A DNA stretch of 64,000 nucleotides. Origin: Escherichia coli. GTDB lineage: Bacteria; Pseudomonadota; Gammaproteobacteria; Enterobacterales; Enterobacteriaceae. Positions within the stretch are counted from its first letter, which is position 1. The number at the start of each line of letters is the position of its first letter. The notes beneath the pieces were generated by a model. That model was given only the letters and a program-made list of their open reading frames with translations. It did not search any database and was not told where the DNA came from. The stretch is taken from the NCBI RefSeq assembly GCF_051903065.1, contig NZ_CP178438.1. One strand, given 5' to 3'. The position numbers and the translations under genes were made by a program. Shown one piece after another: positions 41,721-42,506 of this stretch.

Positions 41721-41729
41721 GAGCAGGCA
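41721..41729. repeat. IS1 target-site duplication, left copy (GAGCAGGCA)
   Basis: 9-bp sequence gagcaggca directly abuts the IS1 left end and recurs directly after the right end. Confidence 0.8.
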
Positions 41730-41784
41730 GGTGATGCTGCCAACTTACTGATTTAGTGTATGATGGTGTTTTTGAGGTGCTCCA

Positions 41785-42060
41785 GTGGCTTCTGTTTCTA
41801 TCAGCTGTCCCTCCTGTTCAGCTACTGACGGGGTGGTGCGTAACGGCAAAAGCACCGCCGGACATCAGCGCTATCTCTGCTCTCACTGCCGTAAAACATG
41901 GCAACTGCAGTTCACTTACACCGCTTCTCAACCCGGTACGCACCAGAAAATCATTGATATGGCCATGAATGGCGTTGGATGCCGGGCAACAGCCCGCATT
42001 ATGGGCGTTGGCCTCAACACGATTTTACGTCACTTAAAAAACTCAGGCCGCAGTCGGTAA
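41785..42060 (+). CDS. insA: IS1 InsA (transposition inhibitor / N-terminal part of transposase)
   Basis: 91 aa [43 protein letters not shown]... (GTG start). Confidence 0.93.
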
Positions 42061-42482
42061 CCTCGCGCATACAGCCGGGCAGTGACGTCATCGTCTGCGC
42101 GGAAATGGACGAACAGTGGGGCTATGTCGGGGCTAAATCGCGCCAGCGCTGGCTGTTTTACGCGTATGACAGGCTCCGGAAGACGGTTGTTGCGCACGTA
42201 TTCGGTGAACGCACTATGGCGACGCTGGGGCGTCTTATGAGCCTGCTGTCACCCTTTGACGTGGTGATATGGATGACGGATGGCTGGCCGCTGTATGAAT
42301 CCCGCCTGAAGGGAAAGCTGCACGTAATCAGCAAGCGATATACGCAGCGAATTGAGCGGCATAACCTGAATCTGAGGCAGCACCTGGCACGGCTGGGACG
42401 GAAGTCGCTGTCGTTCTCAAAATCGGTGGAGCTGCATGACAAAGTCATCGGGCATTATCTGAACATAAAACACTATCAATAA
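41979..42482 (+). CDS. insB: IS1 InsB frame (transposase InsAB' made by -1 frameshift at the A-run near 42036-42041)
   Basis: 167-aa -1 frame ORF overlapping the insA 3' end; slippery ttaaaaaac motif present. Confidence 0.9.
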
Positions 42483-42497
42483 GTTGGAGTCATTACC

Positions 42498-42506
42498 GAG
42501 CAGGCA
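42498..42506. repeat. IS1 target-site duplication, right copy (GAGCAGGCA)
   Basis: Identical 9-mer to 41721-41729. Confidence 0.8.

Follow-up and report, generated by a model that had tools for sequence, protein, structure and literature searches.

A simple IS1 insertion just downstream of yhhT at the head of an aryl-polyene cluster in Escherichia coli

The archetypal insertion sequence IS1 is a 768-bp element that is bounded by terminal repeats and carries a weak promoter partly overlapping its left inverted repeat (IRL); it encodes the repressor InsA, contains an A6C frameshift site, and duplicates 8 or 9 bp of its target (PMC12428005). More than 99.9% of the IS1 transposition observed in E. 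coli K-12 is due to copies of the IS1A/IS1E type (PMC12428005). The element is also known for effects on its neighbors, and PMC11043490 describes activation of the silent bgl operon by IS1 inserted upstream of the promoter, which can occur in such silenced operons without an outward-directed promoter of the element.

Aryl-polyene clusters, one of which has been studied in E. coli CFT073 (PMC8253772), form the second known system relevant to the locus described here. In E. coli O157:H7 the cluster resides on O-island 138, which together with the phosphopantetheinyl transferase AcpT comprises the same gene set as the cluster that we analyzed. AcpT activates the carrier proteins of the O157:H7 cluster, and K-12 represents an ‘orphaned’ state of the transferase (De Lay and Cronan, 2006, as summarized in the passage of PMC8253772 that cites this work). 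Published descriptions of this cluster involve no IS1 at its head, unlike the present locus, and a full-text search for literature joining ‘O-island 138’ and IS1 returned nothing relevant.

The locus lies in a 64-kb stretch of E. coli DNA, hereafter the window, that spans glgB to nikR and contains an IS1 copy between yhhT and an aryl-polyene cluster. The features referred to below are as follows.

40660-41709, plus strand: yhhT, AI-2E family transporter (RefSeq annotation; Pfam AI-2E_transport, E = 5.9e-85)
41721-41729, no strand: left copy of the target-site duplication, GAGCAGGCA (direct reading, repeat finder)
41730-42497, plus strand: complete IS1 of the IS1A type, 768 bp, with transposase genes that read in the same direction as yhhT and the cluster
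41730-41752, plus strand: left inverted repeat (IRL), GGTGATGCTGCCAACTTACTGAT (inverted-repeat pair, repeat finder)
41737-41764, plus strand: promoter-like site of IS1 itself, CTGCCA-16-TATGAT, overlapping IRL (promoter scan)
41785-42060, plus strand: insA, 91 aa, zinc ribbon and helix-turn-helix repressor (ORF list; Pfam)
41785-42482, plus strand: insAB' transposase, 232 aa, with a -1 slip at 42039 (rebuilt fusion; NCBIfam, Pfam, PGAP)
41979-42482, plus strand: ORF in the insB' frame, overlapping insA, with a complete IS1 DDE domain (ORF list; Pfam)
42036-42042, plus strand: A6C (AAAAAAC) programmed -1 frameshift site (motif; role as given in PMC12428005)
42475-42497, plus strand: right inverted repeat (IRR; inverted-repeat pair, repeat finder)
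42498-42506, no strand: right copy of the target-site duplication, GAGCAGGCA (direct reading, repeat finder)
42506-42545, plus strand: putative yhhT intrinsic terminator, a hairpin with 13-bp arms and a U-rich tail, UUUGAUUUG (repeat finder, RNA fold)
42537-42877, plus strand: AT-rich cluster leader, about 32% G+C, intact (composition profile; kept in other island carriers)
42672-42700, plus strand: candidate leader promoter, TTGCCT-17-TATAGT, conserved (promoter scan)
42878-43255, plus strand: first cluster gene, encoding a lipoprotein, the downstream neighbor and outside IS1 (RefSeq annotation)
42878-57895: aryl-polyene cluster, downstream of IS1 (RefSeq annotation, Pfam)
57896-58483: acpT, after the cluster

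Direct reading of the letters and a repeat finder agree on the anatomy of the element and its duplication. IS1 begins 20 bp past the yhhT stop codon (TAA, 41707-41709), and its junctions read, from left to right, CCGGGTTAA TAGCACCTCCT GAGCAGGCA, then GGTGATGCTGCCAACTTACTGAT at the left end of the element and, beyond its interior, ATCAATAAGTTGGAGTCATTACC at the right end, followed by GAGCAGGCA and ATGGCCACC. The terminal repeats, of the GGTGATGCTGCCAACTTACTGAT type, bound an element of 768 bp, the length typical of the IS1 family; they are imperfect, the two 23-nt arms showing 78% complementarity. Alignment with K-12 IS1A runs from position 1 to position 768, such that neither end is truncated, in agreement with an earlier note on this DNA that had described an intact 768-bp IS1 between identical 9-mers; re-inspection likewise confirmed GAGCAGGCA on both flanks (41721-41729 and 42498-42506).

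Two given 9-mers match by chance with a probability of about 4e-6. Within the window, GAGCAGGCA occurs six times (at 9236, 21855, 28529, 41721, 42498 and 56923), whereas shuffled sequence leads one to expect 0.8 occurrences; the IS1 duplication itself supplies two of the six, and the other four are still in excess. Repetition of the 9-mer is therefore no proof of insertion on its own, and the proof comes instead from the unoccupied site. Such a site is present in ECNB21-M121, a strain that carries the island and lacks IS1 at this position: when positions 41730-42506 are removed from the window, the remaining 794 bp match ECNB21-M121 at 794 of 794 positions, and GAGCAGGCA is found there once. 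This comparison proves that IS1 entered by simple transposition, in which 9 bp of the target were duplicated, as the same note had proposed; the duplication, single in the unoccupied site, has one of the two lengths typical of the family.

The coding content of the element is that of IS1. Its insA and insB' frames overlap and are joined through the A6C site into InsAB', which, when rebuilt, is open up to the stop codon at 42480-42482. InsA matches the Pfam models Zn_ribbon_InsA (E = 1.3e-21) and HTH_Tnp_IS1 (E = 4.7e-31), with PF03811 and PF12759 matched in the IS1 ORFs, and the transposase scores well above curated thresholds, both against the NCBIfam equivalog for IS1 family transposases (NF033558; 245 bits, cut-off 100) and against DDE_Tnp_IS1 (PF03400; 261 bits, cut-off 24.1), all of whose positions (1-131 of 131) are covered. 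IS1A and IS1E of K-12 share with the window copy the 768-bp length, the terminal repeats, insA, the A6C site and the insB' frame. Nucleotide identity to K-12 IS1A is 767 of 768, the sole substitution (G for T at window position 42173) replacing a serine of IS1A InsB' with an arginine; apart from this base, the two copies differ in that they occupy different chromosomal sites. The window version of the element is itself widespread: many other E. coli chromosomes and plasmids carry copies 100% identical to it.

Established IS1 biology, from which we draw the steps that follow, suggests how the insertion would have arisen. A rare -1 ribosomal slip at A6C would yield the InsAB' DDE transposase, which would bind both terminal inverted repeats and join the element to target cuts staggered by 9 bp; repair of the resulting gaps would then leave GAGCAGGCA duplicated. 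Once in place, the window IS1, like any copy, could in future give rise to IS1-mediated deletions of adjacent DNA or recombine with other copies.

The distribution of the insertion was surveyed in 5,426 complete E. coli genomes, using as queries either the whole locus or each IS1 junction singly. Every query gave a concordant answer: the same insertion is present in only two of these genomes, the sister isolates 23CRST027 (RefSeq NZ_AP045789.1) and 23CRST031 (NZ_AP045800.1), which come from human faeces in Ecuador and match the window in site, orientation and duplication. Both isolates are rich in the element, with 36-37 IS1-matching places each versus a median of 11. Over 64 kb, 2 SNPs separate 23CRST027 from the window, and PGAP annotates in this isolate the same joined CDS, as ‘IS1-like element IS1A family transposase’. 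One of the two differences falls inside IS1 (window position 42229, G in the window and C in 23CRST027), and the window must accordingly stem from a third, very close member of this clone or from another assembly.

The nearest relative with an empty site is ECNB21-M121. Between this strain and the window there are 7 SNPs in 63,223 bp and no indels other than IS1, indicating that the insertion postdates a divergence of roughly 1 SNP per 10 kb and took place within an IS1-rich lineage. Its description as relatively recent is thus borne out by an empty-site genome only 7 SNPs away in 63 kb and by an occurrence in 2 of 5,426 complete genomes. We consider it highly probable that the 3' untranslated region of yhhT was the target of a very recent transposition of an intact IS1A-type element, in a clone that carries about 36 IS1 copies. 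As an event the insertion is ordinary; it is already annotated in two public genomes, and the account of the island and the orphan acpT has been published. The insertion does provide a clean clonal marker of the 23CRST027-like lineage, and the window lineage and ECNB21-M121 form a near-isogenic natural pair for questions of IS1 activity or aryl-polyene expression.

Inspection of the region between yhhT and the cluster revealed a single terminator-like hairpin (42506-42536), whose arms, AAUGGCCACCGUU and AACAGUGGCCAUU, are followed by UGAUUUG. Folded as RNA, the hairpin has a free energy of -16.3 kcal/mol (z = -3.5), and 0 of 200 shuffles were as stable. In the empty site it begins 25 bp past the yhhT stop codon, which is where a yhhT terminator would be expected, and it putatively acts as one. 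The hairpin is invariant among the three divergent island lineages that were aligned, so covariation in the compared carriers cannot support it; a strict consensus terminator scan did not call it, and a search for known RNA families across 41400-43400 gave no hit with an E value of 1 or less. The hairpin starts on the final base of the right GAGCAGGCA (42506). IS1 accordingly separates yhhT from the hairpin, which now lies 777 bp farther from the gene, and the order given in the earlier note, with IS1 between the yhhT terminator and the cluster leader, has to be reversed: the only terminator-like structure is downstream of the element.

Since yhhT has been cut off from its putative terminator, its transcripts would now run into IS1, entering through the left end co-directionally with insA; those leaving through the right end would meet the displaced hairpin at once and stop. 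Published effects of transcription into IS1 disagree, with stimulation on one side, where upstream transcription raises chromosomal IS1 transposition (PMC12428005), and repression on the other, where read-through represses cointegration (Machida et al., 1983, according to the passage of PMC12428005 that cites it).

Beyond the hairpin, the cluster itself was identified from the RefSeq annotation of identical sequence and from Pfam matches to Ketoacyl-synt_2 and a methyltransferase. Its genes encode a lipoprotein, a methyltransferase, a ketosynthase with its chain-length factor, two carrier proteins and an AMP-ligase, together with dehydratases, LolA and MMPL export proteins, a ketoreductase and further ketosynthases; in ECNB21-M121 the ApeI and ApeP family names are annotated for the cluster. 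That empty-site strain and the window agree exactly in the leader, in the candidate promoter and in the genes of the cluster. Because all of these are left untouched by the element, the cluster is most likely unaffected by the insertion.

IS1 copies are also found at the cluster head in other strains. An IS1A-type copy in 7CC, a strain from mink (2267-3034 of its retrieved locus), duplicates TAATGAGAC, equivalent to window 42864-42872, at the start region of the first gene, and an IS1B-type copy in Eco_23-3511, from a dog (2449-3216 of its own locus), duplicates GGACAAGGC, equivalent to window 43046-43054, inside the lipoprotein gene. Each of the two insertions has its own 9-bp duplication and the orientation of the window copy. 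The copy in Eco_23-3511, annotated as IS1B family, shows 9 mismatches to the window IS1 and has a clean, fresh-looking duplication; the IS1B type is reported to be almost unable to transpose in K-12 assays (PMC12428005). Among the 569 complete genomes that bear the island, 565 have no IS1 at the cluster head and 4 are carriers, as compared with a chance expectation of about 2, which is a crude figure that takes a 5-Mb genome to hold some 12 IS1 copies and the target to span 1.3 kb. An insertion hot spot at the cluster head was considered as a candidate and rejected, the 4 carriers in 569 being near this expectation.

Other origins of the junction can be weighed against simple transposition. 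IS1 promotes adjacent deletions, which counts toward a reading in which the element marks a rearrangement-prone junction or is itself a product of rearrangement (a cointegrate, IS1-IS1 recombination or a step toward loss of the island), as do the many IS1 copies of the host clone and the absence of the island from K-12, whose breakpoint is no more than about 25 bp away from where IS1 sits. The K-12 sequence does show acpT retained and adjoining yhhT without the island, as previously stated, but the breakpoint falls within the last two yhhT codons (GGT TAA versus GGA TGA; window 41705-41709) rather than at the IS1 site. From there the K-12 junction continues through a 38-bp filler and rejoins the window about 20 nt before the acpT start (window 57876-57901), retaining the last 20 nt or so of the cluster's final ketosynthase gene and sharing 26 nt with the window through the acpT start. 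A search for the filler in the window, allowing up to 3 mismatches, gave no match, and in short-word BLAST against the window nothing beyond that 26-nt stretch leading into the acpT start was recovered. Moreover, only two junction forms, 4,856 of the K-12 type and 569 of the island type, account for all 5,425 complete E. coli genomes matched, and none of the 5,426 genomes surveyed has a left or right IS1 junction singly. The existence of just two forms, the freedom of the K-12 form from IS1, its filler and retained gene tail, and the lack of half-junction derivatives together argue for one old event and not for a hot spot, contrary to the suggestion that this junction is recombination-prone. 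Recombination between copies would in addition leave unlike flanks, whereas here the two 9-mers agree and the unoccupied site matches perfectly; consistent with this, a search of the 64-kb window for further IS1 copies or fragments, as a sign of a composite element, found a single IS1, and its junctions always occur as a pair. We therefore regard a rearrangement as highly improbable. Misplacement of the element by an assembler is extremely unlikely: IS1 is a multi-copy sequence of the kind that short-read assemblies often misplace, yet two other complete genomes, deposited separately, show this insertion with the same junctions, and an assembly error would not produce the perfect 9-bp duplication, which is the mark of a biological event.

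With simple transposition as the preferred reading of how the element arrived, the effects that it might have on the cluster can be considered in the same manner. The position of IS1 between yhhT and the cluster, together with the classical polarity of IS1 insertions in either orientation, counts for its acting as an insulator that blocks yhhT read-through, as had been suggested; however, the hairpin already intervenes between yhhT and the leader in the empty site, so IS1 would add little insulation, and this role is unlikely. An activating role, through an outward or hybrid promoter or through disturbed silencing of the kind seen at bgl, finds some encouragement in the leader, whose G+C content of about 32% makes it a plausible target of silencing proteins, and in the three independent IS1 insertions at the cluster head of different strains, all in the same orientation. 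The activation of bgl by IS1 or IS5 resembles the present arrangement in that IS1 lies upstream of an AT-rich promoter region, and because that activation needs no outward promoter (PMC11043490), an AT-rich leader to which H-NS may bind could conceivably be affected. The two cases differ, however, in that the window IS1 sits outside the AT-rich tract and upstream of a terminator-like hairpin: its insertion point is in the G+C-rich border, some 165 bp ahead of the candidate promoter, and the whole tract stays contiguous. The outward promoter raised by the earlier note is not supported either. A promoter scan found no promoter-like site spanning or leaving the right end of the element, neither a suitably spaced -35/-10 pair nor a complete outward promoter, and the TTGGAG hexamer in IRR is followed by CAATGG, AATGGC and ATGGCC at spacings of 16-18 bp, none of which is -10-like; the stable hairpin with its U-rich tail lies immediately outside. 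The insertions in 7CC and Eco_23-3511, at or inside the first gene, would disrupt rather than activate, the number of carriers is close to the rough chance expectation, and a single orientation for all three insertions has a chance probability of 0.25. Activation of the cluster by IS1 is thus decidedly unlikely. It is very unlikely as well that recurrent, selected insertions at the cluster head modulate or abolish pigment and biofilm-related expression in certain hosts; if they did, the window IS1 would be expected to alter cluster expression through local silencing or yhhT read-through.

Several features elsewhere in the window were also observed. Overlapping genes for a DprA-like protein and a RecQ-family helicase (2509-5807, minus strand) lie between yhgN and gntU; yhgN and gntU are presumably adjacent in K-12, and the overlapping pair may therefore be a small accessory insert. 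Directly after yhhY comes ggt (window 11852-11913), at a place near which K-12 has a yhhZ-yrhA segment with IS1E that the window strain seems to lack. An ataT/ataR acetyltransferase toxin-antitoxin pair (26013-26813, minus strand) is located between panM and livJ. The IS1E copy of K-12 lies within yrhA (PMC12428005). A small hypothetical gene (37093-37401, minus strand) separates zntA from tusA, where none is annotated in the K-12 stretch compared, and a tetratricopeptide-repeat gene (19508-20254, minus strand) is found between ugpB and livF.
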